Source: a virus (taxonomy: Duplodnaviria; Caudoviricetes). Taken from it: a stretch of 64,000 bases of DNA. Below are positions 8,508 to 63,602 of this stretch, piece by piece. The stretch lies in IMG/VR virus record IMGVR_UViG_3300044641_005618. The stretch is one strand, 5' to 3'. How positions within the stretch are numbered: position 1 is the stretch's first letter; every line of letters starts with the position of its first letter. Below the pieces are notes generated by a model. The model was given only the letters and a program-made list of their open reading frames with translations. It made no database searches and was not told the DNA's origin. The position numbers and the translations under genes were made by a program.

Positions 8508-8569
8508 ACTATAGCGTTTTCCTTCTGGAAAACAAACGGGGAAACCGCCCAAGGCAAGGGGGCTAACCG
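8508..8569 (-). promoter_or_regulatory. Repeated promoter element (tandem box, -35/-10), leaderless
   Basis: CGGTTAGCC-N13-CGGTTTCCC..TTGTTT..TATAGT-N6-GTG; spacer TTTTCC-AGAA-GGAAAA. Confidence 0.8.
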
Positions 8570-8593
8570 CTCACCGCCCAACGGGGGTCAAGG

Positions 8594-8770
8594 TCAATCG
8601 TCAATTGAGACACCTTCAACAAGCCTGGAAAGGCGTTGAAACCGAGAAGAAGTGAGGGGCACAAGGCCTCCTTCGCACGACACGGACTCCAGTAGAAGAC
8701 GGTCCAGGAAGTTTAACAGAGTCTCGCTGTCGTTGAAGGGGTAGGTATCTGAGTCCGGGTTGTATGACAT
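8594..8770 (-). CDS. Small hypothetical protein (58 aa, starts MSYNPD)
   Basis: Hand translation; below the ORF-track cutoff. Confidence 0.5.
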   Translation of the reverse strand: MSYNPDSDTYPFNDSETLLNFLDRLLLESVSCEGGLVPLTSSRFQRLSRLVEGVSIDD

Positions 8771-8849
8771 TGGTTTTCAGGATTTATGAGCGTATTATAG
8801 CTGTTTTGCCCCAGCAAAGCAAGCCGGGGAACCATCCTAAGGCAACACT

Positions 8850-9035
8850 TTACCTTGTTGCAGTTGAAAGAAAGGGGTGCCCTTCATCAAGCGGTGTGTC
8901 ATCCAAACAGGTAGACACTCCAAAGTGCGACACTCCAAAAAATTCCCCGTCTACCTCCACAGTAGCGTCCTTGTCCAGGTCATCGTTAGAAAAAGTCTGC
9001 AAACTTTCTAAAAGTTCTCGGAAAGTTAGTGTCAC
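8850..9035 (-). CDS. Small acidic hypothetical protein
   Basis: GTGA overlap with upstream ATPase stop. Confidence 0.6.
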   Translation of the reverse strand: MTLTFRELLESLQTFSNDDLDKDATVEVDGEFFGVSHFGVSTCLDDTPLDEGHPFLSTATR

Positions 9036-9601
9036 AGCGAGGGAGCCTCCTTAAAATGTAGCTCACCAAGATAGCTCAAAATCTCTGTGTCCCTGCGTTC
9101 GTCCGGTCCAGATATTGAGATTGGACGGAACCCACTGTACTTGCACAGATAGTCGTAGACAAACTCGTCAACTCTTTTGGCTTGGTCTTCGGTTTCGTAA
9201 CGTCCGCGAGGGTCGAAGGGCTTGATGCGATTTAGGAAGAAATTCTTGTACGTTACACCCCTTTCCTCTGCGTGAGCCATGAAGGATTGAGCGGCGGAAC
9301 TTACGTACGTGTCTTTGCCTTGAGACCGGTAGTCTTGGTAGATTCCTGCCAGAAGTATAGGGCTGTCGGTAACAATGTAGTCAACTTTGCCGTACAGCAT
9401 GCTCTCGTAGGCGCTTTGCTTACCGAGGAGGTAGAGTTGGTCCCACTCACGCACTTTGCGGTCGTTCCACGCCCAGTACTTCACATACTCTCTTACAAGT
9501 TCAACGTGAATGCCGGCCAGCTTCATTCTGGCGAAGAGGAGCGCAGCTGTGGTTGATTTTCCGCAACCGGACCCGCCGAAGAGGTTAATTACTGTTGTCA
9601 T
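9032..9601 (-). CDS. P-loop ATPase/kinase (AAA_28/NadR-kinase-like)
   Basis: Walker A GGSGCGKST; ELVREYVK; IVTDSPILL. Confidence 0.8.
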   Translation of the reverse strand: MTTVINLFGGSGCGKSTTAALLFARMKLAGIHVELVREYVKYWAWNDRKVREWDQLYLLGKQSAYESMLYGKVDYIVTDSPILLAGIYQDYRSQGKDTYVSSAAQSFMAHAEERGVTYKNFFLNRIKPFDPRGRYETEDQAKRVDEFVYDYLCKYSGFRPISISGPDERRDTEILSYLGELHFKEAPSL

Positions 9602-9730
9602 TTTGCTTTAATGGTGGTTTTGATTTAAGGCTTATAGGTAGAAAGAAGGGGGGGGGCCACAAACTTAGTATAGCGGTGTAGCTGCCTTGTAACTAACACC
9701 CGTACAGCGTCCCTTGTGAGCAGGGTTCCA

Positions 9731-10366
9731 CTAAACGTCCAGGTCTAGGAAGGACAGCTCACCAAGTCCAACAAACTCTACCCCTTTGTACACCGTATGG
9801 TGATTTAGATGCCAGTGGCCATGAATCCATAGTTCCGGTTTGTGGGTCTCGAGCATGTTGTCGAAACACCTTCGTGTTACCGAAGGGATGTCAAATTTTT
9901 GCTTTCCTATTTTGTGACACACTAACGAAATTACGGAGTCAGGACACTCATGTGTGACAACGATCTTGGGTTTCACAAGCTCATACGCGTCCATAATGTT
10001 GGAAAGCTCTCCGTAAGAAAGCTCTTCGTCAGGCCACCAGTCGTAGCGCTCGGTACGTCGGTCCCTGTCGATGGAGTAAGCTCCACCCACACAAAAAATG
10101 TCGCCGCGACCGAACACCGACCCCCCGTCTTTCACCCAGTAGGGGTGTCTTTTGCAGGCACCGGGACTGTCGTGGTTTCCCCGTATGAAAAAGTGCTCAC
10201 CCTTTGACATCGCGTCGTAGGGTGGGCTGCTGTATGGCTTTTCGGTCTTCGGGTCAATGAAACCCACACCGAAGTCTCCCACTTGGACTGAGCGGTTGCA
10301 TTCTCTGATTAGCTTCTCATACTTTGACCATTTGCCATGTACATCACCAATAAATCTGATTTTCAC
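9731..10366 (-). CDS. Calcineurin-like metallophosphoesterase
   Basis: GDVHG, GDFG, GNHD, THECP, HGHWH. Confidence 0.9.
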   Translation of the reverse strand: MKIRFIGDVHGKWSKYEKLIRECNRSVQVGDFGVGFIDPKTEKPYSSPPYDAMSKGEHFFIRGNHDSPGACKRHPYWVKDGGSVFGRGDIFCVGGAYSIDRDRRTERYDWWPDEELSYGELSNIMDAYELVKPKIVVTHECPDSVISLVCHKIGKQKFDIPSVTRRCFDNMLETHKPELWIHGHWHLNHHTVYKGVEFVGLGELSFLDLDV

Positions 10367-10596
10367 AGTGTTCCCCTAAACAAGTCAATCACTCTCTGTA
10401 TCGCCTCAGATATTTCACCGGAGTCGTTATCAATAACTCTCTGGTCAACCATCCAAGAAATGAGATTGAAGATGTCTTTTTCAGTCGGTCCCTTTACCTG
10501 CGACTCTTTCAACGCTGCAAGTGCGAGGCATGTTGTAGCGGACTCGTAGGGTATCTCGTCGAGTAGGGCAGCGCAAATGGCGCGAAAGTTTTTCAT
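10363..10596 (-). CDS. Small hypothetical protein, leaderless start
   Basis: ATG exactly 6 nt after TATAGT. Confidence 0.65.
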   Translation of the reverse strand: MKNFRAICAALLDEIPYESATTCLALAALKESQVKGPTEKDIFNLISWMVDQRVIDNDSGEISEAIQRVIDLFRGTL

Positions 10597-10602
10597 ACAC
10601 TT

Positions 10603-10665
10603 ACTATAGCGTTTTTGTCGCTATAAGGCAAGGGCCTAAACCGCCCCGCTCAGGGCGGTTATCCG
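10603..10665 (-). promoter_or_regulatory. Repeated promoter element, leaderless
   Basis: CGGATAACC-N13-CGGTTTAGG..TTGCCT-N17-TATAGT-N6-ATG. Confidence 0.8.
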
Positions 10666-10897
10666 CTTTTTCTAGCTGTAGGCCTGCCGCTACCATTCGC
10701 AGTGAGTGCTCGGCGTCAGCTACGGCTTGTTCCTCAGGCGACGGCAGCTTTCGTTCCAGCAACTCGTCACCCCACTGCCATTTAGCCGCTTGTTCTTGGG
10801 TGGGTTCTCTTTGGTTAGTCATTATAACATGTGAACAATAAGGGTTCTTAAAGTGACTAAGGAAGTGCCTGTACGACACTTCTTTTGCACTTTATTT

Positions 10898-12857: not shown

Positions 12858-12893
12858 AATGAAAGTTGAGTCTGCGCGAGTATGTATAAGGTA

Positions 12894-12956
12894 ACTATAC
12901 CGCTTTCCTTGCGGAAAGGCAAGGCGGTAAACCGCCCCAGAGCAGCCGGTTAACCG
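12894..12956 (-). promoter_or_regulatory. Repeated promoter element
   Basis: CGGTTAACC-N13-CGGTTTACC..TTGCCT-N17-TATAGT; spacer CTTTCC-GCAA-GGAAAG. Confidence 0.8.
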
Positions 12957-13853
12957 TGCCCATCCAACTCAGTTGCAATCGCGTACAACTTCTCTTGGTA
13001 GTGCCCGTGTGCGCCAAGCGGTGTTAGTCCGAGTTCACCTCTAAATTCAATCTGCGTTATCAGTTCTCGAAGAAAAGCAGCCAGTGCTTCACCGGTGTCT
13101 TCAAAAACCCCTAGGCGGTCTGCAACGTCGCAGTAGGCGTTCCATGCGGCTTCGGCTTCAGGGCTGAGTTTGTGCTTAGTCATTTATTCCCAAAAAGTGG
13201 ATAATTAGAATAGACAGCAAGAAACAACCGGCGATAGTACCGAGGGTTGAGTACAAAATTTCAAACATTGTCGCATGGAAGTTTTATATTCCTTTCTGCA
13301 GAAAAATTGTGTAAAGCCCGTGACACCTCGTCTCCAATGGCGTCCTCTATGTCATTGAAGCAGGAACCAGCGTAGGTTCGCCAGGACTGAGTCTCTTCGT
13401 CAAAGTCTTCTAACCGGGTCTCCACGATTGTTCGGTACGGCTCGTAAATCGCGAGGATCGTTTCAAATTGCGCCTTGGATAGGCTTACCCTGCGGGTGTT
13501 TATTCCGAGTGCTTCAGCGATCTGAAGAGATGTGTTTGCACTGAGATACCTAATAACGACAAGGTTATGGTTCCACATTATGTAGGACTCAAGGGTGAGA
13601 CCAGGGATGCTACTCATTTACTTCACCATTCATCAACAGGAATGTCATCGACGGGTAATATGCGTAAGTGACGCACGGTGGGGTACTTCTCGGGAAGCCC
13701 CCTAGTTGCTCCGCAGGTTGAGCACCTGTGCGGGTATTGTAGGGGTTCAGTTAGCCAGGCAACGGTGCCGTAAGGCTGCATTGTTCCACTTTCACACTCG
13801 TCGCATTCATACTCAACCCCGACTACTTGTAGCGGAAAAGTTTTCTCAGCCAT
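12950..13853 (-). other. Three small CDS: 12950-13183, 13261-13617 and a CxxC..CxxC zinc-ribbon protein at 13623-13853
   Basis: ORF track; CDEC and RCSTC motifs. Confidence 0.6.
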
Positions 13854-13970: not shown

Positions 13971-13993
13971 AAAAAAGCCCCCGTTAAGGGGCT
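13971..13993 (-). terminator. Rho-independent terminator
   Basis: AGCCCC-TTAACG-GGGGCT followed by a T run. Confidence 0.8.
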
Positions 13994-16099: not shown

Positions 16100-16133
16100 T
16101 GCTTCGCCCCACGTGTTAGGTCATCTTTCACTA

Positions 16134-16196
16134 AGTATGCCGGTTTTCACCAGGGAAGTAAAGGCGGGAAACCGTCTCGAAGCAAACGGTCAACCA
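16134..16196 (-). promoter_or_regulatory. Repeated promoter element
   Basis: TGGTTGACC-N13-CGGTTTCCC..TTTACT-N17-CATACT. Confidence 0.7.
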
Positions 16197-16222
16197 TACT
16201 TTACACAGGGAAGGACACAGAA

Positions 16223-22409: not shown

Positions 22410-22439
22410 GTCTTTCCCAGAAGCGTTTGTCTTGTAAAT

Positions 22440-22502
22440 ACTATAGCGTTTTCTCTTCGAGAAAACAAGGCGGGAAACCATCCCGATACAGCCGGTTATC
22501 CA
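22440..22502 (-). promoter_or_regulatory. Repeated promoter element
   Basis: TGGATAACC-N13-TGGTTTCCC..TTGTTT-N17-TATAGT; spacer TTTTCTC-GAA-GAGAAAA. Confidence 0.8.
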
Positions 22503-22873
22503 CCGTTTTTCGCTACCTCCCTAGCCCGGTCTCGCATTGAGTATATGCGTCGGCATTCGTCGTCGCTGAGCCCAAGGGCCATGGAATGAAGGTGACTAGC
22601 ACAGGTAATTTTGTCCAAAACTCTTGACAAAGCCCATGCAAAGTCTCCCTCTGGGGGGTCGTAAGTTGGGACCCAGTCTTTGGTGTGACGCCAAGGGTGC
22701 GTTAACCCCTGGTTTCTATAGTGCGCCACATTCTCGAAACGAGTATGTTGGTACCCGTCCTCTTCTTCTCCCATCAAAATTTCAATGGCACCGTCCGAGT
22801 CCATGTCTTCGAAGTCCGGGAGATGGGGTGGATAGTTGTATGAGGTGGATGATGTGTGGGTGGTGTAAATCAT
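22496..22873 (-). CDS. Hypothetical protein
   Basis: 125-aa ORF in operon. Confidence 0.6.
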   Translation of the reverse strand: MIYTTHTSSTSYNYPPHLPDFEDMDSDGAIEILMGEEEDGYQHTRFENVAHYRNQGLTHPWRHTKDWVPTYDPPEGDFAWALSRVLDKITCASHLHSMALGLSDDECRRIYSMRDRAREVAKNGG

Positions 22874-23696: not shown

Positions 23697-23706
23697 TGTT
23701 GTTGTT

Positions 23707-24339
23707 TTAGGTTACTAAAGAGTTAGGTACAAGCTGCTGCGTCCTCCAGTGCTTGTCAGTTTGAACGTGACCTTTACGGACAAACTTAGCAACAGAAGTG
23801 CTAAAGTTATCGTAGTGAAAGGAATCAGCAAGGCGAACTACATAGCCTTCTGTCGTGTTGGTGTCCAGGCCCTTTGCCAGATTAAGGGCCACGGTCTCGT
23901 CCCAGAGTCCAGAGTAAAGAACGGAAACAGGGGTGACCCCTAACATTTCAAAGTAGTCTTCAGTGTCCTCCCATGACAATGCCCGGTTGTGCTCGTCAAA
24001 AATGCTAAACCCGTAAAAGTATGAGTGCAAGTTGGAGTAAGAAACAGAATGTTTCGCCCAGAGGTTTTCACCACAGATTCGCCACCCTTCAGGGATTTCA
24101 CTACGGATCGAAGCCCAGAATTGCTTCACCCATGCGCGGTCTTCACCACCTTTGCTGTCCAGGCTCCTGGCGTGAACATAGTCTCGGTACATCGTTGTAT
24201 TCTCACCGTCCATCTTTTCCGTCACAACCACGCGGTTGCCCTCAAAATGAACGACGGACGGAACAACCTTGTCGTCAGACGTTACAGCTTCTGACCAAGG
24301 TAGATGAAAAGTCCTGGGGTACTTGGTGCGGGATTCCAT
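23707..24339 (-). CDS. ATP-dependent RNA ligase (Rnl2-like nucleotidyltransferase domain)
   Basis: KYPRTFHLPWS, motif I TEKMDGEN, CGEN, EGYVVR, AKFVR. Confidence 0.85.
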   Translation of the reverse strand: MESRTKYPRTFHLPWSEAVTSDDKVVPSVVHFEGNRVVVTEKMDGENTTMYRDYVHARSLDSKGGEDRAWVKQFWASIRSEIPEGWRICGENLWAKHSVSYSNLHSYFYGFSIFDEHNRALSWEDTEDYFEMLGVTPVSVLYSGLWDETVALNLAKGLDTNTTEGYVVRLADSFHYDNFSTSVAKFVRKGHVQTDKHWRTQQLVPNSLVT

Positions 24340-24363
24340 GTCAGTTTCTCTGGTCTTGTACTA

Positions 24364-24407
24364 AGTATACCGTTTCCGCCGAGCAGAAGAAAGCGGGGGA
24401 AACCGCC
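24364..24407 (-). promoter_or_regulatory. Repeated promoter element (single box)
   Basis: GGCGGTTTCCC..TTTCTT-N17-TATACT. Confidence 0.7.
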
Positions 24408-24506
24408 TTAGCAAAGATCCGCTTAGGTTGAACCCTCGGAAACCATTGGTGAATGTGGGGAATAAACGAACGTTCGTACGATTATCTATCGCCCTTGGAC
24501 TGAACT

Positions 24507-24794
24507 TTAAAAACCCATCGGTGAGCGACCCTTGTAGCAGTCGGGTGTCTCTCCACCCTTGTAGTCGTTTATTGGGGTGAGTGGAAGCTTTGTGAAACTG
24601 AAGAACCACTTTGAGTTGGGGTTAGGGGTAAGAGTTAATTTCTTTAATGGGGGTTGGACGCTATTTAGCCACCCTTCCTCGAGGAAAGGGGGCAGTTCTC
24701 GCATGCTGGCAGCAGCGGCGTTAGCAATGTCTTGAGTGCTCGGGTCTCCCTCTAGCTTAAGGGACAAAGTGATCGTGACTTGATGAGTTTCCAT
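24507..24794 (-). CDS. Small hypothetical protein
   Basis: Directly downstream of a promoter element. Confidence 0.55.
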   Translation of the reverse strand: METHQVTITLSLKLEGDPSTQDIANAAAASMRELPPFLEEGWLNSVQPPLKKLTLTPNPNSKWFFSFTKLPLTPINDYKGGETPDCYKGRSPMGF

Positions 24795-24818
24795 TGGGAA
24801 TTTGCTTTCAACATACTT

Positions 24819-24883
24819 AGTATACCGTTTCTGCGCTGCAGAAACAAAGGAGGGTAAACCGTCCTAGAGCAACCGGGACCCCG
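24819..24883 (-). promoter_or_regulatory. Repeated promoter element
   Basis: CGGGGTCCC-N13-CGGTTTACC..TTGTTT-N17-TATACT; spacer GTTTCTGC-AGC-GCAGAAAC. Confidence 0.8.
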
Positions 24884-24901
24884 CCTAAGCAAATGACTCG
24901 C

Positions 24902-30773: not shown

Positions 30774-31364
30774 TCAGTCATTAAGATTGGATCGAAGCAT
30801 ATTGCAGAAAATACGACCTTGCTCGATGGCATCATCCACAGCGATGTGAGTGTGCTTGTTTTCGAGTGGAAACCACTCCTTTGGGTAGTTCCGTTTGGTG
30901 GACTCCCGGTATCCTCTTTTGAGCAAGGCCATAGCATAGGTCTTACCGTCAAGCGCCGAGAAGCTAAATGGGGACTGTCCAGTGAACCGAATAAGGTACC
31001 AATACACGAAAAGAAAGTCAAACCCTGCAGGAAAACCCACGAATACGGGCAAGGCTTTCCGACCACCTGAACCTTGGTTACTGTTAGCTTTCACGGTCTG
31101 GTCAACCCAACCCGAGAAGAGCAACATGGCTTGGTCCGGACTCCAGGTATGCTCCCGAGAGGCTCTGTAAGCCTCTGGGTGGGCCTCCCACCACGCTTGA
31201 GTGGTAGGGTCCGCCTGAGCCTCCGGAAGGGTCTCCAGGTTCACCGAGAAGGTGCTTAGGAGTATCCCATCGGGTGAGAACGCAGCCGACCCGAGCGAAA
31301 GCATGCTGTTAGGTCCGGGGATCGGTCCGTCGGTCTCAACGTCTGTGCTGAAGTAGATTTCCAT
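30774..31364 (-). CDS. DEDDh 3'-5' exonuclease (Rv2179c-like), leaderless start
   Basis: [22 protein letters not shown]. Confidence 0.85.
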
Positions 31365-31370
31365 AAAACA

Positions 31371-31432
31371 ATCATAGCATTTATGCGAAGCAGAAACAAG
31401 GGGGAAGCCGAAGGCTTCAGGGCGGTTTACCG
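31371..31432 (-). promoter_or_regulatory. Repeated promoter element, leaderless
   Basis: CGGTAAACC-N13-CGGCTTCCC..TTGTTT-N17-TATGAT-N6-ATG. Confidence 0.8.
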
Positions 31433-36094: not shown

Positions 36095-36134
36095 TCGCTT
36101 GCCCGGTGAAAGTGCTGCTAGAGACTAACAGATC

Positions 36135-36677: not shown

Positions 36678-36701
36678 TTTCGTTGTCGGATTGACTCTTT
36701 A

Positions 36702-36763
36702 ACTATACCGTTTCTGTGGAGCAGAGCAAAGGGGGGTAAACCGCCCTAAGGTAAGGTTAACCG
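36702..36763 (-). promoter_or_regulatory. Repeated promoter element
   Basis: CGGTTAACC-N11-CGGTTTACC..TTTGCT-N17-TATAGT. Confidence 0.8.
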
Positions 36764-36781
36764 TTCAACCCCTTCACCAAG

Positions 36782-37231
36782 TCAGTCATGTTCAGCGTAG
36801 CCTACGCTGAAACCCTCCCGAGTCGCAACTATGACGTTGTCAGAACCAAACATGATCTCCATGATAGGCTCCATGACACTTGATGTGAGTAGCTTCGCCA
36901 GGGATTGTGTGGACTCAACGTTCACGCCGTCGAACTCAGGGTCTTGATCTGACCACACACCCTCCTTCTCACCGTCGTACTCCCCCCAGCGTGACAAGTC
37001 GTCAAGATCGTCTCCTTCGGCGTTCGTGAAGTACGGGTCATGCACACTAAACGTACAAGGTTCCCCATCGTTGAAGTACGGGGCGTATTGAGACCAGTGT
37101 ATGGCCTTAATTGCAGGGTTCTTTTCCCAGAACTCAGCAAAGTACTCTTTTAGCCTCTCCTGTGCGACCTTTTGGAATCTCTCTTGTTGCTCTGTAAACT
37201 CTTGAATAAGTAAGTCGAGGGATTGTGACAT
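36782..37231 (-). CDS. Conserved phage hypothetical protein
   Basis: WSQYAPYFNDGEPCTFSV motif. Confidence 0.7.
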   Translation of the reverse strand: MSQSLDLLIQEFTEQQERFQKVAQERLKEYFAEFWEKNPAIKAIHWSQYAPYFNDGEPCTFSVHDPYFTNAEGDDLDDLSRWGEYDGEKEGVWSDQDPEFDGVNVESTQSLAKLLTSSVMEPIMEIMFGSDNVIVATREGFSVGYAEHD

Positions 37232-39727: not shown

Positions 39728-41102
39728 GACACAAGGGCAATATAAATACTGTCTAGTTTTTGAAGCAATATGTTCATTTTCGCTGCCTCGCTCACAGCCA
39801 AATCAAGCTGTCCACGTGTCACATAAGTTGCAATAACCTGACTCGCTTGTGCCCTGAAGGTGGAGGAAAAGGCTTCGGCACACTGAGCTAAAACGAGCCA
39901 GTCTGAGTTGGGGAGACTCACCGAACGGTGAATTTCTTCACCTTCACACTGTGTAAAGACCTGTGTAATCGCGGAAGTATGGCTCATGGGTTAGGATTGG
40001 GGTTTTTTGGCCATTTCAAGCTGAGCCTTGTAGAGTGCCACCCTCTTCTGGGTACCCTTCTTAACAAGGTTCAGATGGTTGAGTGTTCGAGTGGGGTTTG
40101 TTGGTTTCATTGGGTATGGTGTCGCCTCTTGTGAAGTTGGTTTAGGAAGAGAAAGCCCCCTATCTTAGTGAAAACCTCGATTGGTTGCCACCTTAGGTAC
40201 GAAGAGGTAAGATACCACTTTCCTTCGGCATTTTTGTAAACTTTCCCCACGAGTACATCCGTAGTGGGGCACTTGTAGGTTACGAACGATGGGAAGTTAA
40301 ACCCAACTCGAAGGGGTGACTTGTACGGGGCAGGTTTATCGTACACGGTTGACCTCCTCCCAGTAGTCTGATCGTGGTTTGCTGGTTTTCGTCACAACTC
40401 GGACTTGGACCGTAGCTCTTCGCTTTCTAAGCATTTCAGCCAGGGTGGCCCTAAGTTTAGGGTCCGTGGTGGTATTATAGGCTTGTTCGAGTCTCTCGTA
40501 AACTGCGGCCCGGTTAGGGATCTGCAGGTTTTCCTTGTTCAGCACCTCAGAGCTGAGGTCCAGGGTTCCTAGTTTACCTTGGATTTTGTTCCTTCCGAAG
40601 TTCCCCGAGACTCTGCCGTTCGTTCGCAGTTTCGGCTTAATTTTGCTTAAGTTGCTGTTTTCCATGTCCTACACATGCTACACAGAAAGGTTGCGAGAAG
40701 CTTCGCATGAGTACTGGAAAGCCAAGTCCATGAGGTAGTCCTCTACTTGCCTGAGCTTTTCAAGAGCCGCTTCCCGTTCCTCGCAGAATAACTCCCATGC
40801 TTCCTCATCCCTAGTACCGCGAGAGGGGCAGTTCGCTTGGATAAGTTTCTTTCGGGCATCGTGAACAGACGCCCAAACCCCGTTGTACTCAGACGCAAGG
40901 GCAGAAGCATTAGTTTCACTCTTCTCAGTGGCAGGGGTGCAGGTCATTGCTTTGCTTGTGGGTGGGACTGAGGAGTCAACTTTTGAAGGAGGCAGGCGCG
41001 GCGAGCTCTCGCTTGGCGAAGGGCTTGGGGCTTGGCCCTGCCTTTTCGTTTTCGGCCCTTTTGGCGGGGTCCAAGTTTGGAGCGGACTGAGTCGTTTTCC
41101 AT
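39724..41102 (-). other. Run of small CDS including basic proteins 40336-40665 and 40944-41102 (leaderless)
   Basis: ORF track; MENDSVRSK start lies 6 nt after TATAGT. Confidence 0.55.
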
Positions 41103-41108
41103 ACATTT

Positions 41109-41172
41109 ACTATACCGTTTCTGCGAGGCAGAAACAAAGGGTGGAAACCGCCCCATGAAGGAGGGTTAACCG
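41109..41172 (-). promoter_or_regulatory. Repeated promoter element, leaderless
   Basis: CGGTTAACC-N13-CGGTTTCCA..TTGTTT-N17-TATAGT-N6-ATG; spacer GTTTCTGC-CTC-GCAGAAAC. Confidence 0.8.
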
Positions 41173-41190
41173 CCCACTCTCCCACAAGGA

Positions 41191-43207: not shown

Positions 43208-43589
43208 TCACCTCTTCTGGAACTTTACGGTCGCGAGAAGCATTCTGGCGTAGGCAAACGGCGAGCGGCTTTTCAATGACTACAGCAGTAACCTTGTCGT
43301 AGCCGTACGAGTTCAGCGTAGCAATTGCTTCCTTGCGGTAAGCTGCCTTGTAGTGGGTACCATCCATAACTATAGTCCGACCTACACTCTCCTCCAGAAT
43401 CTCCAGCATACGGTCGTGAATCTCGGTGTAGTTTCCCTGAATGTCGGCGTTCCCGTAGAGCTCGGCGCGGATTTCATCGCCGGAAAGTACAACGGCATCT
43501 GGGTGAAGCTCTAGTAGCTTAGCCACATGGGTTGACTTACCGGAGCCGGGGGCACCGACCATCACGTATGCTTCGAGGTTGTTTTCCAT
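43125..43589 (-). CDS. Polynucleotide kinase-like P-loop protein (AAA_33), leaderless start
   Basis: GAPGSGKST, SGDEIR, VMDGT, RNASRDRKVPEEVI-type lid. Confidence 0.85.
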   Translation of the reverse strand: MENNLEAYVMVGAPGSGKSTHVAKLLELHPDAVVLSGDEIRAELYGNADIQGNYTEIHDRMLEILEESVGRTIVMDGTHYKAAYRKEAIATLNSYGYDKVTAVVIEKPLAVCLRQNASRDRKVPEEVIERMHASLQASLKNITNEPFHRIDFIY

Positions 43590-43595
43590 ACTTGT

Positions 43596-43657
43596 ATTAT
43601 ACCGTTATTCCTCGTCAGGGCAAGGCGGGAAACCGCCCAAGGACAAGCGGTTTACCG
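43596..43657 (-). promoter_or_regulatory. Repeated promoter element, leaderless
   Basis: CGGTAAACC-N13-CGGTTTCCC..TTGCCC-N16-TATAAT-N6-ATG. Confidence 0.8.
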
Positions 43658-43839
43658 GCCGACTTTAGCTTTTGGTCTCAGACCGGAAAAAGTTATACTC
43701 TTCGACCCACTCATGAAGAGGGTCCTCATTCACAACGTCCCCACTGTTGTTCACATAGTCTTGAACCACCCACGCAATCTCTCCGAACTCCAGGTCGTTC
43801 CATGGCCATGACGCACCCACTTTGACGCCAGGGTAGCTC

Positions 43840-45711: not shown

Positions 45712-45741
45712 ACTTGGAGAACTAAGCTCGCTTACACACCC

Positions 45742-45786
45742 ATTATAGCCCCCCTTGATCCAGGAAGGCAAGGGTGGAAACCGTCC
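45742..45786 (-). promoter_or_regulatory. Repeated promoter element (single clear box)
   Basis: GGACGGTTTCCA..TTGCCT-N18-TATAAT. Confidence 0.7.
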
Positions 45787-45969
45787 CTTTTCACAGGGTT
45801 TTAAGTATAGTCCGCAGAATCTGCGATTCTTGTTCTTGGAGCTCTACTCTCCTCTGCCTCAGTTTCCGCTTAGTTCGCCTCATCTCCCTAACTCGACTTT
45901 CCAAGGAAAGTGCACGCACCTCCGCTAAAGAGGATGCTTGCCTCAGAGGCAAAAGCCAGTCAGTCTCGT

Positions 45970-46895: not shown

Positions 46896-46967
46896 CGCCC
46901 TGAGAGGGATTCGAACCCACGACCGGTGTCTTAGAAGGACAGTGCTCTTCCACTGAGCTACCAGGGC
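46896..46967 (-). tRNA. trnR: tRNA-Arg(TCT)
   Basis: GCCCTGG/TCAGGGC acceptor, loop CTTCTAA, GGTTCGAATCC. Confidence 0.92.
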
Positions 46968-47385: not shown

Positions 47386-49313
47386 AAGACCGAGAGATGC
47401 TTGTACAAAATACTCTCATCGAAAAACCGGTACTCCGACGAAAACTCTTCTCTCTGCTGAAAGTGTTCGAGCTCTTTTAAGGTGGCCCTAACAACCGGGC
47501 AGTCTGAAACGTAATCCTTGTACCAGAAAGTGTTGAACTTTGGAATGTACTTCCACCTATCTCCGTGCGGAATCCAAACTTTTTCAAAGTTCGTTTCGTG
47601 TAGCGAGCACGGGTCGTTCCACGTATCGGGGTCTACAACACTTATCTGCTGCACGATATCTTTCGTATCGTCAAGGAACGCCTGAAAGTAAAAGTCGTCA
47701 GGTGAGATTTTCCAGGTTAGGTTGACAATAAGATAGGGGATGTCGGGAAAGTCCCCTGACTGCACCGAAACCTTCTCGGCCACCCTTAAGCTAGTGATTG
47801 CCGTTTTCATCTTCCTCCGAAATGTTTGAAACTTCCGGGGTTCCCCTCAAAAGAAGCGTCTCAAAGAATTCGACCACGTCTATGCGATTAGTCGTATCAA
47901 CTCCCGCCGTGCGACAGAACTCGATCGCTTCGTACTCAAAGGGGAAGAACGGGTTGGACAAGCCGAAAGATTTAAGTCTCTGCAGGAAACAGTCTCGGAT
48001 TGCGCCATAAAGGGGTGGGAAATCGGACTCGTTAAGTTCGACGGTGCGTTCAACTTTCGACGGTGCGTTATACGTGATTTTCATACTACTCAGTGGGGTG
48101 TACTGAATGGGAATTACGTTCAATAACTTGTTCCAGGAAAACAAGTGCTTGTTCGTCAGTGTCGAAGAAGTGGCCTGCTGCATTCGATCCGAGAAGCACC
48201 TCTCCCGCTTCTTTAGGTGTGAGAGTAAAAGCACCAACCCCTCCCATAACCTGCGCGAAGCCCGCCAGACAGTGAGTGGTCCCGCACGTGTGAAAACCTG
48301 CTTCGTTCGATGGTTCCTTCCAGAAGGACCAATCTTCGTAAGTTGTTCTGTCAGTGTCAAACCAGAGCTTGTGCCACCTCTCCATGTGGAGGTTTTTCCG
48401 GTCGCGCTCAACAATCCATAGTGCGACATAGAGGAGATTGGCTTCCTGTTGTTCGGGTGTCAACCCTCCCAAGTCTTCTACGTTTCTGTACGTGCACTCC
48501 TCAAAGGCGTCAAGGGCGAGTAGGAAATTCGCCGGGATATGCGGGAGCGGAGGGAGCCCTTGTGATGTGCACATCCGGTGAGCAACCCGAGTGGCTTCAG
48601 CTGGCGTCAGTGCTTCGGTGCAAGTTGCTGTGGTCATTGTTTCGTTCGAAAATACAGTAGTTTGTTTGGAAAAGGTGAACGGTGCGGGGTTTTCCTCGCC
48701 CAGCAAACCTAGGGGAAAGGCTTACGCGTTACAAAGTAAGTTGAGACCCCTTGGTCGTTGCAAATGTGGAGACTTAGGGTCCTCTCGGTTATGTACGGGT
48801 CTGCACGAACTGAGTTACTCACCAGCTTGCACTTTTCGGCTAAAACCTTCGCTTCTTCCCTCTCAATCTCAGCGTTGTGCTCTTCCGCTCTTCGGTAGCT
48901 CAAGTTAATTACCGCCACCACTAGAACTGCTAGCCCTAGCACAGTGACAATAGTCACTAAGCCAAGGATACCGCCAACATACGGGTTCTCAGTTTTCATA
49001 CTTCGTGAAATACCACTTCTGTTAACTCTAAGGACTGAAAATGATCGCGCAGCGCCGTTAGCGCTTCTTGCTTTGTATTAAAGAAAACGTCCGGGCCTGG
49101 GCAACCGTCTACGCCTTCATTAAAGAAGGTAAGGAACCACCACCATAAGAACTTGTGTTCGCAGTAGAACCGGCTAATCCTTTCACCGTTTTCGGTACGG
49201 ATTTCTTCTCGAATGCGGTACTTCATTGGGGTTGAGGGTCGGGGGGGATTGAGGGCTAGCCAACTAACTTTAGCGTGTTCACGGCAAGGGAGAGGGGGCG
49301 GAAAACCGCCCAT
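47367..49313 (-). other. Run of small hypothetical CDS including a CGTTHCLAG protein (48086-48706) and a TM protein (48709-48999)
   Basis: ORF track. Confidence 0.55.
49267..49311 (-). promoter_or_regulatory. Variant promoter element with palindromic box
   Basis: GGCGGTTTTCCGCC upstream of CGC-TAAAGT. Confidence 0.5.
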
Positions 49314-50192: not shown

Positions 50193-50222
50193 GGTTTGTG
50201 AGGGGTTGCTTGGACTGAAATA

Positions 50223-50266
50223 ACTATACCGCTTTCCTGTCGGAAAGGAAAGGGGGTAAACCGCCC
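50223..50266 (-). promoter_or_regulatory. Repeated promoter element
   Basis: GGCGGTTTACC..TTTCCT-N17-TATAGT; spacer CTTTCC-GACA-GGAAAG. Confidence 0.75.
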
Positions 50267-50501
50267 TTCCTCTGGAGCTAAGACCCGAACCTCAATCTCT
50301 TTCCCACAATTGGGAGCACCGTTGACTACACTTTAGCGGCCTGAGCGGGTAGCTCATTTTGGCCCTGAACGCATTTCTTTGTACTTCTTCTGCGTTCCTG
50401 CCTGTCACAACCATTTGAGTCTTGCACAATGCATCGTTGCCAGATAAAGCGGTGCAAAGCGCCAAGATCGCAATTGAAACTCTGTTCATTGTTCGTGTGA
50501 A

Positions 50502-51944: not shown

Positions 51945-52349
51945 CTATCGCGGGGCACCACCCATGTACTCTCGAAAGGCGTTCATAAAGTACCTTACGT
52001 CCTTCTCGTAAGATGTGTCAGGGTCGTACCACGAGAAGGGGACTTTTTGTGATATCTTCTTGGAGAAAATAAGGTCATACTTGGCTTCATCGGAGAGCTT
52101 AGACTCGTAGATTGAGTTGGCCTCCCTGTACACTCTGCTTAGCTCATCAAAGCCACCTGCTCCACTTGCTTCTTCGTTCAACTCCAGGGCACCTTCGTAC
52201 CACTCTTCGAGGGACTCCACAATTTCTCCAAGCCTTGTGGCGTAGGTGTGTTGGTCGTCCCTTAGCAAACTTTGACGGAAAGTGCGTAACTGACACAAGG
52301 TGTTATGAAGTTTTGTAAAGTCTTCGGAGAAGAGTGTGATGTTTGCCAT
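51945..52349 (-). CDS. Hypothetical protein, leaderless start
   Basis: ATG 6 nt after TATAGT. Confidence 0.65.
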   Translation of the reverse strand: MANITLFSEDFTKLHNTLCQLRTFRQSLLRDDQHTYATRLGEIVESLEEWYEGALELNEEASGAGGFDELSRVYREANSIYESKLSDEAKYDLIFSKKISQKVPFSWYDPDTSYEKDVRYFMNAFREYMGGAPR

Positions 52350-52355
52350 ACAGTA

Positions 52356-52418
52356 ACTATAGCGGTTTTACTGAGCGAAGGCAAGGGGGGAAACCGCCCC
52401 CAGGACGAGTGTTAACCG
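52356..52418 (-). promoter_or_regulatory. Repeated promoter element, leaderless
   Basis: CGGTTAACA-N13-CGGTTTCCC..TTGCCT-N17-TATAGT-N6-ATG. Confidence 0.8.
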
Positions 52419-52856
52419 CCCTGGCTCAAGTTAATTTCCTTGCGACTTCCTCCGTAAGACTCAATAACTTTCCCCGCATTAGACACACTCACATCTAAGT
52501 GTCTGTACTCCGTGGGGGTGTTCTGGAGTATGTGCTGAAATTGCCCCTTAAACTCCTCCCAGGAAATAGTGTCCGACACTCCCTGCCCCCTTTCAATCTG
52601 TACGACACTGTCGTACAACTCTCTCAGGGAAGAAAACTCTATAACCTGAGAGTACATCTCCCACTCGCTATGCGATTCACTTGACTGACCTTGCATATAA
52701 AATTAACAGGATGAGGAACAAAGTATACGCACAGCCTAAGATCATGAACGGGCTAAGCACCGAGACCCATGGCCAGGATATTTGCCCCGTTAATTTCAAT
52801 CCGATGAGAAGACCCTGGGCTGTCATTAACGAAGCTGAGAGATTCGTAAACATTAG

Positions 52857-55772: not shown

Positions 55773-55828
55773 GTTTTCTTTGCGGTTTCCTCTGGGTTAT
55801 GGTGCCAGTGCGATGGTTTTGTAAGGGT

Positions 55829-55874
55829 ATACTAGCGTGTTTGCTACGGGGAAGCAAGGGGCGGCTTCCCGCCC
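55829..55874 (-). promoter_or_regulatory. Variant promoter element
   Basis: GGGCGGGAAGCCGCCC..TTGCTT-N17-TAGTAT. Confidence 0.55.
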
Positions 55875-55891
55875 TTACCCCCGGACCACAC

Positions 55892-56558: not shown

Positions 56559-57296
56559 CTAAGCAAACTGAACAAGGGTCTGTTCTTCCAGGTTCCACAC
56601 ACAGAGGCGAGCGTGCGCCGGGTCGAAACTTTTCTGAGTGCTGCCACCCATCTGACCGTCGAGAACCAGGCTCTTCTCGCTCGTGTGAACGTGGTGGTAG
56701 TGCCCCGCGACACGAACCCAGGTCCGATCGCATTCCTCTTCCCACCAAAAGACACGAGTCTCATCTTGAGGGTACACCGCACCGGGACGGCGAGGACCAA
56801 ACAGCATGTAGTCCTTGGCTTTTCTCGTCACCTCGTTCACACGGTACACTCCAGTGTAAGACGGCGGAACAAGAACCCACTTCGGAAACATCGCGTGAGC
56901 ACAACGGTACTCGGTCCCTCGGGAATCTCGCAAGGCAACCCCGTAGGGAAAAGTTTCCAGCCAGGCAGAGACTTCCTCAATAGGGATACCTGCGTCTGAG
57001 AAGTCTTGCACAGTACGCTCAAAGCCCTCTTTAAGAACCACGTTGTTCCCGCGAGCGTAACGCTCCAGCTTGTTTTGGTGGTTGCTTCGAAGCACAATCG
57101 CCCCTTCTTCCATGGCTTGCCGAACGGCTTTGTACACACCGACACTGTCGCTTGTTTCCATGCGAGAGTCAAAGAGGTCGCCGAGGAAAATTGGTGTGCA
57201 ATTTGCTCCTCGGCAATAATCGAGTGCTTTGAGCAGGGGCTTTCTCTGAGAGTGTAGGTCGCCGATGAAGGCAAAATTGGAAGTAACGTTATTCAT
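56559..57296 (-). CDS. Metallophosphoesterase, leaderless start
   Basis: GDLH, GDLFD, SNH, CAHA, AGHYH, LDG. Confidence 0.85.
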   Translation of the reverse strand: MNNVTSNFAFIGDLHSQRKPLLKALDYCRGANCTPIFLGDLFDSRMETSDSVGVYKAVRQAMEEGAIVLRSNHQNKLERYARGNNVVLKEGFERTVQDFSDAGIPIEEVSAWLETFPYGVALRDSRGTEYRCAHAMFPKWVLVPPSYTGVYRVNEVTRKAKDYMLFGPRRPGAVYPQDETRVFWWEEECDRTWVRVAGHYHHVHTSEKSLVLDGQMGGSTQKSFDPAHARLCVWNLEEQTLVQFA

Positions 57297-57302
57297 GATA
57301 TT

Positions 57303-57347
57303 ACTATAGCGTTTTTCCGTCTGAAAGGCAAGGGCGGGAAACCGCCC
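57303..57347 (-). promoter_or_regulatory. Repeated promoter element, leaderless
   Basis: GGCGGTTTCCC..TTGCCT-N17-TATAGT-N6-ATG. Confidence 0.8.
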
Positions 57348-57668
57348 TTAGCCACGTAGAAATCCTTTGTGTTGTGCAGGCTCGCGACGGGTGGGCCTTT
57401 TTCTGGCGACAGCAGGTGCTGAGACAACCGGGGATGGCGCAGGAGACTCTGCAAGAGCAAGGGGTTGGACCGGTGACGGTGGCTCCTCCAGGGCATTAAG
57501 CAGTGCCTTCAGGGCAACGACAAGGTGGGGTCTTAGAGCCTTGACAGCCTTACTCGCAAGGCCAAAAAGGAGAACGGACCACGCAATCGTAGTCAGTGCC
57601 GCGTTCACGGCTCTGTTACCAACAACCACGTAGTTGACTCTGCGCAAGGGTTCGAGAAGGTTTTTCAT
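57348..57668 (-). CDS. Hypothetical single-TM protein
   Basis: Hydrophobic N-terminal half, Pro/Ala-rich tail. Confidence 0.55.
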   Translation of the reverse strand: MKNLLEPLRRVNYVVVGNRAVNAALTTIAWSVLLFGLASKAVKALRPHLVVALKALLNALEEPPSPVQPLALAESPAPSPVVSAPAVARKRPTRREPAQHKGFLRG

Positions 57669-57723
57669 TTTCTTTGCGAAAGGTTTCTAGGAGTTCGTTG
57701 TAGAGGGTGAACTCCCTAAAGCT

Positions 57724-57768
57724 AGTATAGCCCATTTGCCCCGAAAAGCAAAGGGGGAAAACCGTCCC
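57724..57768 (-). promoter_or_regulatory. Repeated promoter element
   Basis: GGACGGTTTTCC..TTTGCT-N17-TATACT. Confidence 0.7.
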
Positions 57769-59522: not shown

Positions 59523-60226
59523 CTAGGCGGACGTCGTCTTCAGGTGTTTGACACCATAAGGTGCGAAAGGCTTCAATCGCTTCGGGAGTTGTGCCCGTAG
59601 GGTATTCGTACGGGGGTTGGGGCTGACATTTAGGTTTAGTGCGGGGTGAACTGACTTAGTTAGTATAGCGTTTCTGCCGAGCAAAAACAAGCCGGGAAAC
59701 CGTCCCGGAACAAACGGGAAACCGCCCCAACCACTTTGGCTTTCACGAGGGAACACTACCCCCCAGGTATCCGGCCTATCGGAATTTGGACGATGAACAT
59801 ACAACGTGAATGCAACACCGAGGAGTCCAAGTACCACACTCGTAACGGACAGAAAAGTTACAGGGACATGAACTCCGACAACTATCGCCAAGGACGAAAT
59901 TAAGCATTGTATAGCAAAGACTGCCGCTATTGCTACGGTTAGTGTGTTATCACGGTAGTTTCGAATTACTAGATTGCAGTCACGAAAGAACTTACGCATT
60001 AGGAATCATTGTGTATGTTGGGACGATGAATGTAACATGTAATGGCAAGGAGTGAGATGCCATATGACACCAGGAAGTGGTTCACAGGAGTTGCCAAGAT
60101 CCCTAGACTTAAGGTGAAGCAGGCTACCAAACAATGAAAAGCAAATATAAGTGCTAGGGTTAGGGTAGAAGTGCCTTGTCTATAGCGGCGAATGTGCCAA
60201 TTTGCGTAGCGAATTAAAGAGAGCAT
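59523..60226 (-). other. Tandem paralogous small membrane proteins (59999-60226 and the 5' part of 59523-59999)
   Basis: Both follow IRxYR...A..FA..CL...G...Y(I/V)HRPN. Confidence 0.6.
59662..59724 (-). promoter_or_regulatory. Repeated promoter element
   Basis: CGGTTTCCC-N13-CGGTTTCCC..TTGTTT-N17-TATACT. Confidence 0.8.
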
Positions 60227-61834: not shown

Positions 61835-62623
61835 CTTGTAGATGTTTTGCTGTATTTTTGGGCCTACAACTTCTCCCTGTACAGCCACATTGTCAAACCC
61901 TGCAGTCTTCAGTTTTTCTTCTAGATTGACTTTTCTAGCGACGGACCAATAAGTGTTATTATAATCCTCTTTTAGGTCTAAGTTACGGGAGCAAACTCCG
62001 AACTCTCCGTTGTTAAGGTACATCGTACAGGATGTACCCTCTAGTTTCTCCGTAACTTCGTATATAACATTCTTGTATTCCCCCAGTTTGTCGTATAGAG
62101 ATTGAACTCTCGGCTGGTCCGTTTTGGTAATGAAACTCGGGAAGTTTCCACGCACTTGTCCGGCAAGGCATGCGGGGACCGTGGCCTCCCACTTTTGAAT
62201 ACCAAACTCTAGAGTGAAGTCTTCGCCTTCTTGCCACACACACTCATCAACTCGGAGAGATCCCCTCCCCCCATAAGGTTCAGCTAGCGAAACAACGTAG
62301 AAGCTTGGAGAGATGTCCGAGAAGCGAAGTAGGAGACCCTGGGAGACTTGACCACGGAGCCGGACGGTTTTCAACCTTTCCCCCTTCACTCCATTGTACT
62401 CCCTTGGTTCCTTCCCCTTGGACAAGAACGGGGCAAGTTCGTGGGGGATCCACGAGTCAATCTCGAAATAGATTGCAAGATCACCGGCCTGGAATTCCCC
62501 CCTCTTCACGACAACGGGCCAGCCACCTCCCACGATGGCGCACTCAATTGCGTCGGCGTCTGGAATTGGTCGGATCTCCGTTACTTTTCGGACGGAGGCG
62601 AGTTTGCGTTCGATGTTTGCCAT
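61544..62623 (-). CDS. RNA ligase, DRB0094 family
   Basis: RKLASVRKV..I.PIPDADAIE, YFEIDS, LRGQVSQGL, TEKLEGTS, GEVVGP, REGIVFK, FKSISNQYLLK. Confidence 0.92.
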   Translation of the reverse strand: MANIERKLASVRKVTEIRPIPDADAIECAIVGGGWPVVVKRGEFQAGDLAIYFEIDSWIPHELAPFLSKGKEPREYNGVKGERLKTVRLRGQVSQGLLLRFSDISPSFYVVSLAEPYGGRGSLRVDECVWQEGEDFTLEFGIQKWEATVPACLAGQVRGNFPSFITKTDQPRVQSLYDKLGEYKNVIYEVTEKLEGTSCTMYLNNGEFGVCSRNLDLKEDYNNTYWSVARKVNLEEKLKTAGFDNVAVQGEVVGPKIQQNIYKLNDFKFFVFDVYLTDMGRYMTPLERKNFCDQFGLGHVPVLGSFSIKDMGVEEILGMADGFSQLSNKTLREGIVFKSECGAFSFKSISNQYLLKSGL

Positions 62624-62629
62624 TTTGGT

Positions 62630-62850
62630 TTAGGTTGGTTGTTGAGAAAGTGATAAATTATTTGTGGAGGAACCTTCCGTTGGTCCGGAAACCATAGACC
62701 CAGATGTTTTTCCAAAGGGGTAGTACCAAAACCCTACATAGAGAGATACAAGCGAAAAGTCGATGATCGATGGAAGGAGCACCAGAAGCCAGGGCCAGGA
62801 TATATACCCTGTGAGTTTGAGGGCTAAAAGAGAAGAGTGAAAGGTGTCAT
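62630..62850 (-). pseudogene. Frameshifted small membrane protein gene (MTPFTLLF/LALKLTGYISWPW)
   Basis: One extra T in the run at 62826-62829 restores a 73-aa ORF. Confidence 0.55.
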
Positions 62851-63070
62851 GAAGTCAAATGTTGTGAAGCTTACGCGATTGCTCAGCTAGCTTTTCTCTC
62901 TCCTTAGCTAACTTAACGATCAAAGTCATCTGAAGATTACCGCTGAACTGCGAGAGCGTGAAGATTTCAATTGCAGCGTCGATTAAAAGAGCATAGGGTA
63001 CTAAAATCCTCATTACCCGACAGTTTAGGTGGGGTTCCTTCACAGGGTTTCTAGTAATTTTGAATTTCAC

Positions 63071-63493
63071 TTAAGCTCCTCCCACTGGGTCACCGCCTTC
63101 GGCTGCCTCTCTGGCGAATAGCTCCACAGCCCTTCTTATGACGTCGGCTTTACTTATACCGTCAGCCTTTGCAAGAAGGGTCACCACGTCATAAAAGTTT
63201 TGCGATACACGCAGCTCAATGGTATGTTGAGCACCCCCTTCGGTAGAACCCTCAGTTGGTGCAGCGCCAGCAGAATCCCCCTGGGTCACCGCCTTCGGCT
63301 TCACCGCCCAATCCGCCGGATCGCACTCGGTAGCAGCCGCAAAGTCAATTTCCATGACGGAGTTCCCACGGTTGATGCGGGGAACCCCATAACGTACCTC
63401 AGACCCCCTGGGGACAGGGAGATAGTTTTCGTGAACCCAGTCCCAAAACTCGGGAAGGTGGATTTCGATTGTTCCTTCGGATGTGAATGCCAT
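63071..63493 (-). CDS. Hypothetical domain fused to a C-terminal ribbon-helix-helix
   Basis: TIELRVSQNFYDVVTLLAKADGISKADVIRRAV. Confidence 0.7.
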   Translation of the reverse strand: MAFTSEGTIEIHLPEFWDWVHENYLPVPRGSEVRYGVPRINRGNSVMEIDFAAATECDPADWAVKPKAVTQGDSAGAAPTEGSTEGGAQHTIELRVSQNFYDVVTLLAKADGISKADVIRRAVELFAREAAEGGDPVGGA

Positions 63494-63538
63494 TTTTCTG
63501 GTAAAAGGTGGATTGCGGGGTTTGCCCCGTATAAACCT

Positions 63539-63602
63539 GCTATAGCGTTTTCCGTCTGAAAAACAAACGGGGGGAAACCGCCCCAAGGTAACCGGGAAAC
63601 CG
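63539..63602 (-). promoter_or_regulatory. Repeated promoter element
   Basis: CGGTTTCCC-N13-CGGTTTCCC..TTTGTT-N17-TATAGC. Confidence 0.75.

Follow-up and report, generated by a model that had tools for sequence, protein, structure and literature searches.

Repeated stem-loops joined to early promoters were already observed in T4-type phages (RB49/phi1, T4/PST and KVP40/nt-1), where they are known as PeSLs (Arbiol et al. 2010, PMC2839356; Comeau et al. 2014, PMC4122927). A PeSL consists of a stem-loop, often of the polyG...polyC type, located directly ahead of a sigma70-like early promoter; experiments showed that the stem-loop terminates transcription, the cassettes recombine and they are abundant in plastic regions (PMC2839356, PMC4122927). 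Here we describe a family of repeated cassettes, mostly with one or two boxes of the form CGGTTWMCC ahead of a promoter, in 64,000 nucleotides of DNA from a virus of the Caudoviricetes (IMG/VR record IMGVR_UViG_3300044641_005618), this whole stretch being referred to as the window. We conclude with high confidence that these cassettes are promoters of one dispersed family. It is probable that they are PeSL-like stem-loop/early-promoter units of a jumbo cyanophage, read by host RNA polymerase, and we also favor the view that the box is a stem-loop, acting as attenuator or insulator.

The likeness to PeSLs lies in the combination of a repeated intergenic stem-loop with a sigma70-like promoter of 17-bp spacer, in the density of cassettes among small non-structural open reading frames (ORFs) and their rarity in structural modules, and in recombination from cassette to cassette, which deletes or inserts gene modules. 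Unlike PeSLs, the present cassettes have no AT-rich upstream region, the -35 hexamer being preceded by a G-run, box and C-run, and no Shine-Dalgarno sequence, the predicted transcripts being leaderless or provided with very short leaders. Nor is the phage T4-like, its DNA polymerase being of the gamma-like family A type. Its closest cultured relative is Synechococcus phage S-CBWM1 of the genus Aokuangvirus, whose DNA polymerase is 56% identical; a megablast search of 20 kb of the window against cultured phages gave no match. Beyond what is known of PeSLs are the strongly conserved loop and inner stem (CGGTTWMCC), the two stem-loops at 22 ± 1 bp in about half of the cassettes, the covarying dyad in the -35/-10 spacer and the approximately 93 copies per genome. 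Termination was measured in the T4-type phages, while in the present cassettes it is predicted from sequence.

In the window CGGTTWMCC occurs 23 times, while 2.25 ± 1.55 occurrences (maximum 6) are expected from dinucleotide-preserving shuffles. A cassette weight matrix trained on 19 window copies found 22 sites. All of them lie on the minus strand, as do all window genes; the plus strand and the reversed-sequence controls gave no site. The initial annotation had given 21 main minus-strand copies by the low coordinate of each -10 hexamer; all 21 were recovered, and one copy absent from it was added (-10 at 8794-8799). Three further copies had been called degenerate: the one at 9667 is detectable as a weak site (core-promoter score 9.0), while those at 46979 and 51887 fall under the threshold. 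The proposed arrangement, a CGGTTT(A/C)CC box upstream of a TTG(C/T)(C/T)T-like -35 and a TATA(G/C/A)T-like -10, holds with a 17-bp spacer, and the 24 listed places share a minus-strand layout of G-run, box, C-run, TTGYYT, 17-nt spacer and CG(G/C)TATAGT. A second box had been reported in at least 13 copies, in accordance with the 12 that we find when up to one mismatch is allowed and the 14 with up to two. The distance between boxes is 22 bp in 10 copies and 20 and 23 bp in one copy each, and the two boxes with two mismatches are also 22 bp away.

Over most of the window the nearest virus record (G001, 277,244 bp) shows 86-96% identity; it contains 93 cassettes, with none in reversed-sequence controls. 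They track gene orientation by block (plus strand at 4-44 kb, minus at 50-143.5 kb, plus at 144-170.5 kb) and span the non-structural genes (about 170 kb), among which small ORFs of the kind usual in immediate-early regions are numerous; the weight-matrix scan found no cassette at 170.5-252.2 kb. The exact composite pattern was found in 84 stretches on about 35 uncultured viral contigs and as only 5 single matches in 596 Gb of bacterial genomes, with no signal there from cyanobacterial hosts. From all sources 230 unique cassettes were pooled, and the spacing of the second box was counted on 207 unique cassettes. The placement is intergenic, with stops of upstream ORFs at or before the boxes. 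Literature word searches found no description of such a cassette in cyanophages, and an Rfam scan of the sequence returned tRNAs only. About 100 non-structural transcription units would begin with one repeated cassette of 60-75 bases.

Judged by its hexamers and their spacing, the core of the cassette is a canonical sigma70-type promoter. The consensus TTGYYT-17-TATAGT describes the 22 window copies, the 93 copies of G001 and the 230 unique copies alike, with variants TTGTTT, TTGCCT and TTTACT at -35, variants TATAGT, TATACT and TATAAT at -10, and a 17-bp spacer. Seven nucleotides after the -10 hexamer (position +12 from its first base) a purine is present in 223 of 230 unique copies (97%) and C never occurs. 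The -10 hexamer (0.8% mismatch) and this start base are the most conserved positions among near-orthologous pairs. ATG lies exactly at the predicted start base in 73 of the 230 copies (32%), compared with 0-13 at neighboring offsets, and some start codon lies there in 40%. ORFs of at least 45 amino acids begin at +12 in 25 of 115 sites, and a second mode of ORF starts, comprising about 30 further sites, is found at +28 to +32, i.e. 16-20 nt past the start base, where no Shine-Dalgarno sequence was found. Host RNA polymerase would start at this purine, which in about a third of cassettes would be the first base (A or G) of the start codon and predicts a leaderless mRNA (eight window genes are predicted to be of this kind), while most other cassettes would give a CA-rich leader of 16-26 nt without Shine-Dalgarno sequence. 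A core-promoter scan of the window found no strong core promoter that lacks a hairpin. A generic promoter/terminator scan of a 20-kb stretch with 8 cassettes reported 2 promoters and is too strict for this family.

Many of the leaderless genes open with ATGGAAAAC (Met-Glu-Asn), for example at 43589, 41102 and 36024 in the window and at 23815, 24258 and 61456 in G001, so that the repeat runs two or three codons into otherwise unrelated genes. Two overlapping ORFs follow the cassette at 41102, a 142-aa frame with its ATG at 41106 (4 nt upstream of the predicted start) and a 52-aa frame with its ATG at 41102. At 46979, under the matrix threshold, a -10-like TATTCT lies a few bases before the tRNA-Arg at 46896-46967 and may be a box-less promoter of the tRNA cluster.

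Upstream of the core, the box forms the loop and inner stem of a hairpin whose 5' flank is a purine run and whose 3' flank is a pyrimidine run. The 23-nt regions of the downstream box (box 1) have a mean folding energy of -7.7 kcal/mol, compared with -3.75 kcal/mol for composition-matched shuffles and -2.1 kcal/mol for random genomic 23-mers, and 80% of copies fold at -5 kcal/mol or lower. With two or more mismatches in the box, as in 23 cassettes, the fold is just as stable (-8.4 versus -3.9 kcal/mol) and is built from different stems and loops, for example GGAAGCC-GAC-GGCTTCC or GCCGG-GATA-CCGGC. Both boxes are assigned to hairpins by RNAalifold. Either orientation of the box was found at either position; the inverted box 1 is CGGGAAACC, and at the upstream position (box 2) CGGTAAACC was found 8 times and CGGTTTACC 3 times. 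Box 1 begins 34-37 nt ahead of the -10 hexamer, and the fraction of T in the 8 nt after its stem-loop is 0.61. This tail owes its T content only to the -35 hexamer, and so pyrimidine/T-rich a hexamer fits a double role as the tail of the stem-loop. In unrelated AT-rich viral contigs GGGCGG-TWWA-CCGCCC stands between A- and T-runs and forms a textbook bidirectional terminator. A stronger box-1 hairpin in cassettes without box 2 was considered and set aside as not significant (-8.2 versus -7.1, P = 0.17).

According to the model that we favor, each cassette would be a host-type (sigma70/SigA-like) early or middle promoter behind one or two short GC-rich stem-loops. In relation to the predicted start, the optional stem-loop 2 would be centered at about -65 and stem-loop 1, built of purine run, CGG, the 4-nt loop TTWM, CCG and pyrimidine run, at about -43. 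The TTGYYT hexamer would abut stem-loop 1 and double as its pyrimidine/U-rich tail, followed by the 17-bp spacer, TATAGT and the purine start. In RNA arriving from upstream the stem-loops would be attenuators, terminators or 3'-end protectors, by which each unit would be insulated. This would resemble Rho-independent terminators that overlap the next promoter, in having a GC-rich hairpin with a 4-nt loop; unlike in such terminators, the tail is the -35 hexamer (TTGYYT or TTTACA) and not a U-run, and the tail of the upstream stem-loop is 31% T.

The initial annotation had instead suggested, from the tandem boxes phased two helical turns apart, a dedicated activator and not plain host-sigma promoters. 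The phased boxes themselves are confirmed, while the geometry does not amount to proof of an activator. The idea can be generalized to double-stranded DNA operators of a dimeric phage or host regulator. Bound to CGGTWWACCG at about -43, the regulator would contact sigma region 4; its binding at about -65 would be cooperative and on the same face of the helix, and about 100 promoters would be switched on or off together. We regard this as rather unlikely, and several observations nevertheless speak for it and weigh against our model. Box 2 is present in 121 of 207 unique cassettes, and the spacing in these tandem cases is 22 bp in 75 (62%), 23 bp in 30, 21 bp in 14 and 20 and 24 bp in one each, so that 119 of 121 (98%) lie within 22 ± 1 bp despite variable linkers, which fits a protein site at least as well as a stem-loop. 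The same can be said of the confinement of boxes to promoters, their occurrence elsewhere being at chance level only. The 10-mer at the core is a palindrome that occurs in both orientations, the center of box 1 at about -43 is the position of a class II activator, and the -35 hexamer shares only the TTG of TTGACA. In fixed register the box stems show no compensatory covariation other than what follows from composition, with a G-run opposite a C/T-run. The 8 nt that follow stem-loop 2 have a T fraction of only 0.31, which makes a weak canonical terminator tail, and the generic terminator scan flagged 1 of the 8 cassettes in the 20-kb stretch. Finally, CGGTWWACCG and its GGGCGG/CCGCCC arms are kept in S-CBWM1 while the -35 and -10 differ, and this, too, suits a DNA-binding protein no less than a stem-loop.

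On the other side, where the box letters have been lost a hairpin with an unrelated sequence occupies the same place, and about half of the box-2 copies have a G-run facing a T-run, flanks which can pair only as G-U, a feature of RNA. The identical hairpin is a generic terminator elsewhere, and among 30 window ORFs scanned no DNA-binding regulator or transcription factor was found by Pfam. A core promoter this close to consensus should work without an activator. The assertion that the geometry shows a dedicated activator and not plain host-sigma promoters is not supported: the core is of plain sigma70 type, box regions fold better than shuffles, degenerate boxes retain hairpins, boxes are used in either orientation and the layout is that of the published PeSLs (PMC2839356, PMC4122927). 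Palindromes abutting -35 and repeated about two helical turns upstream are also known from lambda CI at OR2/OR1-PRM and from the C-boxes of restriction-modification systems (PMC2632904), the genes of which are often leaderless, as here. Those are one or few loci with an identified helix-turn-helix protein, unlike the about 100 promoters here with an only hypothetical binder, and the present site, unlike theirs, behaves as a hairpin once its letters are lost.

A further point against the stem-loop model is a second dyad, which is a real and unexplained feature with no role in it. In 37-40% of cassettes a perfect stem of at least 5 bp is present between -35 and -10, centered 12 nt before the -10, with arms of 5-8 bp and loops mostly of 3 nt, while shuffles gave 3% and swapping of the 3' halves among copies 18-23%. 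Covariation of column pairs around this center reaches a z value of 9.6, and other centers are without such a signal. Several arm classes were found, GTTTCTGC/GCAGAAAC (with 14 different loops), CTTTCC/GGAAAG, GTTTTCTC/GAGAAAAC and TTTGC/GCAAA, and the variable distance between the common TTTC and GAAA ends indicates a fold rather than one fixed protein site. No association of the dyad with leaderless status was found. The boxes together with the spacer dyad could be recognition sites rather than passive RNA stem-loops, with one phage or host factor on the boxes and possibly a second factor on the dyad, which would switch about 100 promoters or target module exchange. This we can propose only tentatively, as a minority view; if true, it would be a genome-wide structure-plus-sequence regulatory code of a whole cyanophage lineage, the culturable S-CBWM1 included.

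S-CBWM1 contains 10-12 cassettes of the form GGGGCGG-TAAA-CCGCCC, TTTACA, 17-bp spacer, TAAGCT or TAAAGT, and several of them precede orthologs of cassette-bearing window genes (DUF932, metallophosphatase and SprT-like). Compared with the window, conservation is higher in the letters of the hairpin than in the promoter hexamers, with the loop in flipped form, so that a palindrome-binding protein stays among the candidates; the argument is weakened by the occurrence of the generic hairpin elsewhere. A conserved hairpin, CTGACT-NN-AGTCAG, directly follows the -10 (TAAGCT) in S-CBWM1 and is absent from window cassettes; it would be a 5'-terminal stem-loop on the transcripts.

Returning to the PeSL-like model, the repeated cassettes would double as sites of homologous recombination, through which gene modules are added, deleted or swapped. 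One such event is a clean cassette-to-cassette crossover: window cassette 50216-50267 is the upstream part of the G001 cassette at 58969 joined inside box 1 to the G001 cassette at 58610. These two flank an extra cassette-plus-ORF module of about 359 bp which is missing from the window. Cassettes abut 3 of the 13 differences between the window and G001, namely this hybrid and two that begin at a cassette. Comparison of window 23704-24886 with G001 154164-154705 showed that upstream flanks are swapped around two neighboring cassettes, the RNA-ligase gene 23707-24339 being present at that place in the window only. This rearrangement is bounded by cassettes and goes beyond a simple indel. On a larger scale, the window up to 37029 is colinear with G001 178969-143642 (reverse) and beyond it with G001 45600-74139, a break that represents a 98-kb inversion. 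The junction falls inside the minus-strand ORF 36782-37231 and could alternatively be an assembly chimera in one record. No cassette and no repeat was found at the ends of the inversion, which indicates that it was not cassette-mediated.

The crossover inside box 1, as well as the dyad with its short, covarying arms and 3-nt loops, could also be attributed to signals at the level of DNA, either cruciforms or single-strand hairpins on which a structure-specific recombinase or nuclease would act to move gene modules, as in integron attC sites, or hairpin promoters like those of phage N4. The authors of the PeSL study speculated likewise for GGGG...CCCC (PMC2839356). We consider this highly improbable. 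Homologous recombination between repeats of 50-70 bp is enough for the one event seen, and the small share of differences adjoining cassettes, together with the inversion breakpoint, does not point to a dedicated system. The spacer dyad has the shape of an N4-type hairpin promoter (5-7-bp stem, 3-nt loop) but sits between canonical -35 and -10 hexamers with 17-bp spacing, which speaks against an N4-type mechanism. A search for a single-subunit (T7-like) RNA polymerase (RNA_pol, PF00940), by which such a promoter would be read, gave no match, though the control of this search was silent as well, which makes the negative uninformative.

The polymerase itself could be directed by the phage. Both G001 and S-CBWM1 encode two sigma70-family proteins (G001 252192-252900; S-CBWM1 101567-102360), and the -35 hexamer is consistently off TTGACA, so that the cassettes could be middle promoters read by RNA polymerase with a phage sigma70-family protein, the box being an extra upstream element. 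We find this very unlikely. In both phages a cassette immediately precedes the first sigma70-family gene (204 and 211 aa), and something else must therefore read that cassette first; TATAGT with a 17-bp spacer is the pattern of group-1 sigma factors, and the cassettes cover all of the about 170 kb of non-structural genes with their many small ORFs of immediate-early type. The position of the sigma gene suggests a cascade from early promoter to phage sigma to late genes, in which the product of the cassette-driven gene would presumably take over at the cassette-free structural region. Host sites of the NtcA, Pho-box and HLR1 types, which the box resembles, were set aside, as either spacing or letters do not fit, and a link of the cassettes to DNA-hypermodification genes was set aside as having no supporting evidence.

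Tens of oriented short repeats in intergenic gaps are also present in mycobacteriophages, as stoperators in cluster A and as start-associated sequences in cluster K. They follow the direction of transcription and are asymmetric sites for a protein or associated with the ribosome, unlike the present cassettes, in which promoter and hairpin are fused. If the PeSL-like model is correct, the principle of an insulated, portable promoter module that also serves gene shuffling reaches a lineage that is not T4-type. The cassette map would give about 100 transcription units of an uncultured jumbo cyanophage, a third of them predicted to be leaderless, and leaderless genes on such a scale are unusual in a cyanobacterial phage. 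A cultured member of the lineage, S-CBWM1, is available with its host Synechococcus CBW1002, and start sites, termination and a box-binding factor are therefore directly testable. The cassettes would also be compact, strong and insulated promoter parts for cyanobacterial engineering.

Besides the gamma-like DNA polymerase, the window encodes a topoisomerase subunit, two Tet/JBP dioxygenases, an amino acid:DNA transferase, RNA ligases, phosphatases and tRNAs. Its cassettes, all on the minus strand, are as follows. Cassette 8501-8572 has box 2 at 8561-8569, box 1 at 8539-8547, -35 at 8531-8536 and -10 at 8508-8513, and its predicted start (8501) is the GTG of a leaderless 94-aa ORF. The added cassette at 8787-8838 has a degenerate box 1 (TGGTTCCCC, 8826-8834), -35 at 8817-8822, -10 TATAAT at 8794-8799 and the spacer dyad TTTGC/GCAAA. 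The weak promoter-like site at 9660-9720 combines a good -10 (TATACT) with a poor -35 and has no box. In 10596-10668 box 2 is CGGATAACC (10657-10665), box 1 lies at 10635-10643 and -10 at 10603-10608, and the predicted start (10596) is the ATG of a 77-aa ORF. Cassette 12887-12959 has box 2 CGGTTAACC (12948-12956), the TAA of which ends the upstream ORF, box 1 at 12926-12934, the dyad CTTTCC/GGAAAG and -10 at 12894-12899. A weak box 2 (16188-16196), box 1 (16166-16174) and the -10 CATACT (16134-16139) make up cassette 16127-16199.

Cassette 22433-22505 has box 2 at 22494-22502, box 1 at 22472-22480, the spacer dyad GTTTTCTC-GAA-GAGAAAAC and -10 at 22440-22445. With box 1 only (24397-24405) and -10 at 24364-24369, 24357-24409 would drive the RNA-ligase gene; 24812-24886 has a weak box 2, box 1 at 24853-24861, the spacer dyad GTTTCTGC-AGC-GCAGAAAC and -10 at 24819-24824. 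Before the DNA-hypermodification operon lies 31364-31435, with inverted box 2 CGGTAAACC (31424-31432), another hairpin (GAAGCC..GGCTTC) at the position of box 1, -10 TATGAT (31371-31376) and the predicted start 31364 at an ATG. In 36024-36097 the boxes are 23 bp apart (box 2 36086-36094, box 1 36063-36071), -10 lies at 36031-36036 and the predicted start (36024) is the ATG of the SprT-like gene, the orthologous cassette being present in S-CBWM1. The distance of 20 bp belongs to 36695-36766 (box 2 36755-36763, box 1 36735-36743, -10 36702-36707). Cassette 41102-41175 has box 2 at 41164-41172, box 1 at 41142-41150, the dyad GTTTCTGC-CTC-GCAGAAAC, -10 at 41109-41114 and an ATG at the predicted start (41102), and 43589-43660 has box 2 CGGTAAACC (43649-43657), box 1 at 43627-43635, -10 TATAAT at 43596-43601 and its predicted start (43589) at the ATG of a kinase-like (AAA_33) gene.

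Two weaker cassettes follow, 45735-45787 with box 1 CGGTTTCCA (45775-45783) and -10 TATAAT (45742-45747), and 49260-49312 with the hairpin GGGCGG-TTTT-CCGCCC around 49300-49308 and -10 TAAAGT (49267-49272). The recombinant cassette 50216-50267 precedes the DUF932 gene, has box 1 at 50255-50263 and has an orthologous cassette in S-CBWM1. In 52349-52421 box 2 is at 52410-52418, box 1 at 52388-52396 and -10 at 52356-52361, and the predicted start (52349) is the ATG of a 134-aa ORF. The degenerate cassette 55822-55875 carries in place of box 1 an inverted-type hairpin, GGGCGG-GAAG-CCGCCC (55863-55871), of -13 to -15 kcal/mol depending on the window folded, with the -10 region at 55829-55834. The best score was that of 57296-57348, which has the hairpin GGGCGG-TTTC-CCGCCC (57336-57344), -35 TTGCCT, -10 at 57303-57308 and its predicted start (57296) at the ATG of the metallophosphatase gene; it, too, has an orthologous cassette in S-CBWM1. 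Cassette 57717-57768 has box 1 only (57756-57764) and -10 TATACT (57724-57729). Two CGGTTTCCC boxes 22 bp apart are present both in 59655-59727 (59716-59724 and 59694-59702; -10 59662-59667) and in 63532-63605 (63594-63602 and 63572-63580; -10 TATAGC 63539-63544).

In about 9 of 115 cassettes (offset -50) a TAA inside the GGTTAACC or GGATAACC of box 2 is the stop codon of the upstream ORF, for example at 12948-12956, 22494-22502, 31424-31432 and 52410-52418, so that the end of the gene overlaps the stem-loop. At 13976-13993 the minus strand carries a canonical bidirectional terminator, AGCCCC-TTAA-CGGGGGCT followed by TTTTTTG, which indicates that the phage uses textbook terminators elsewhere.

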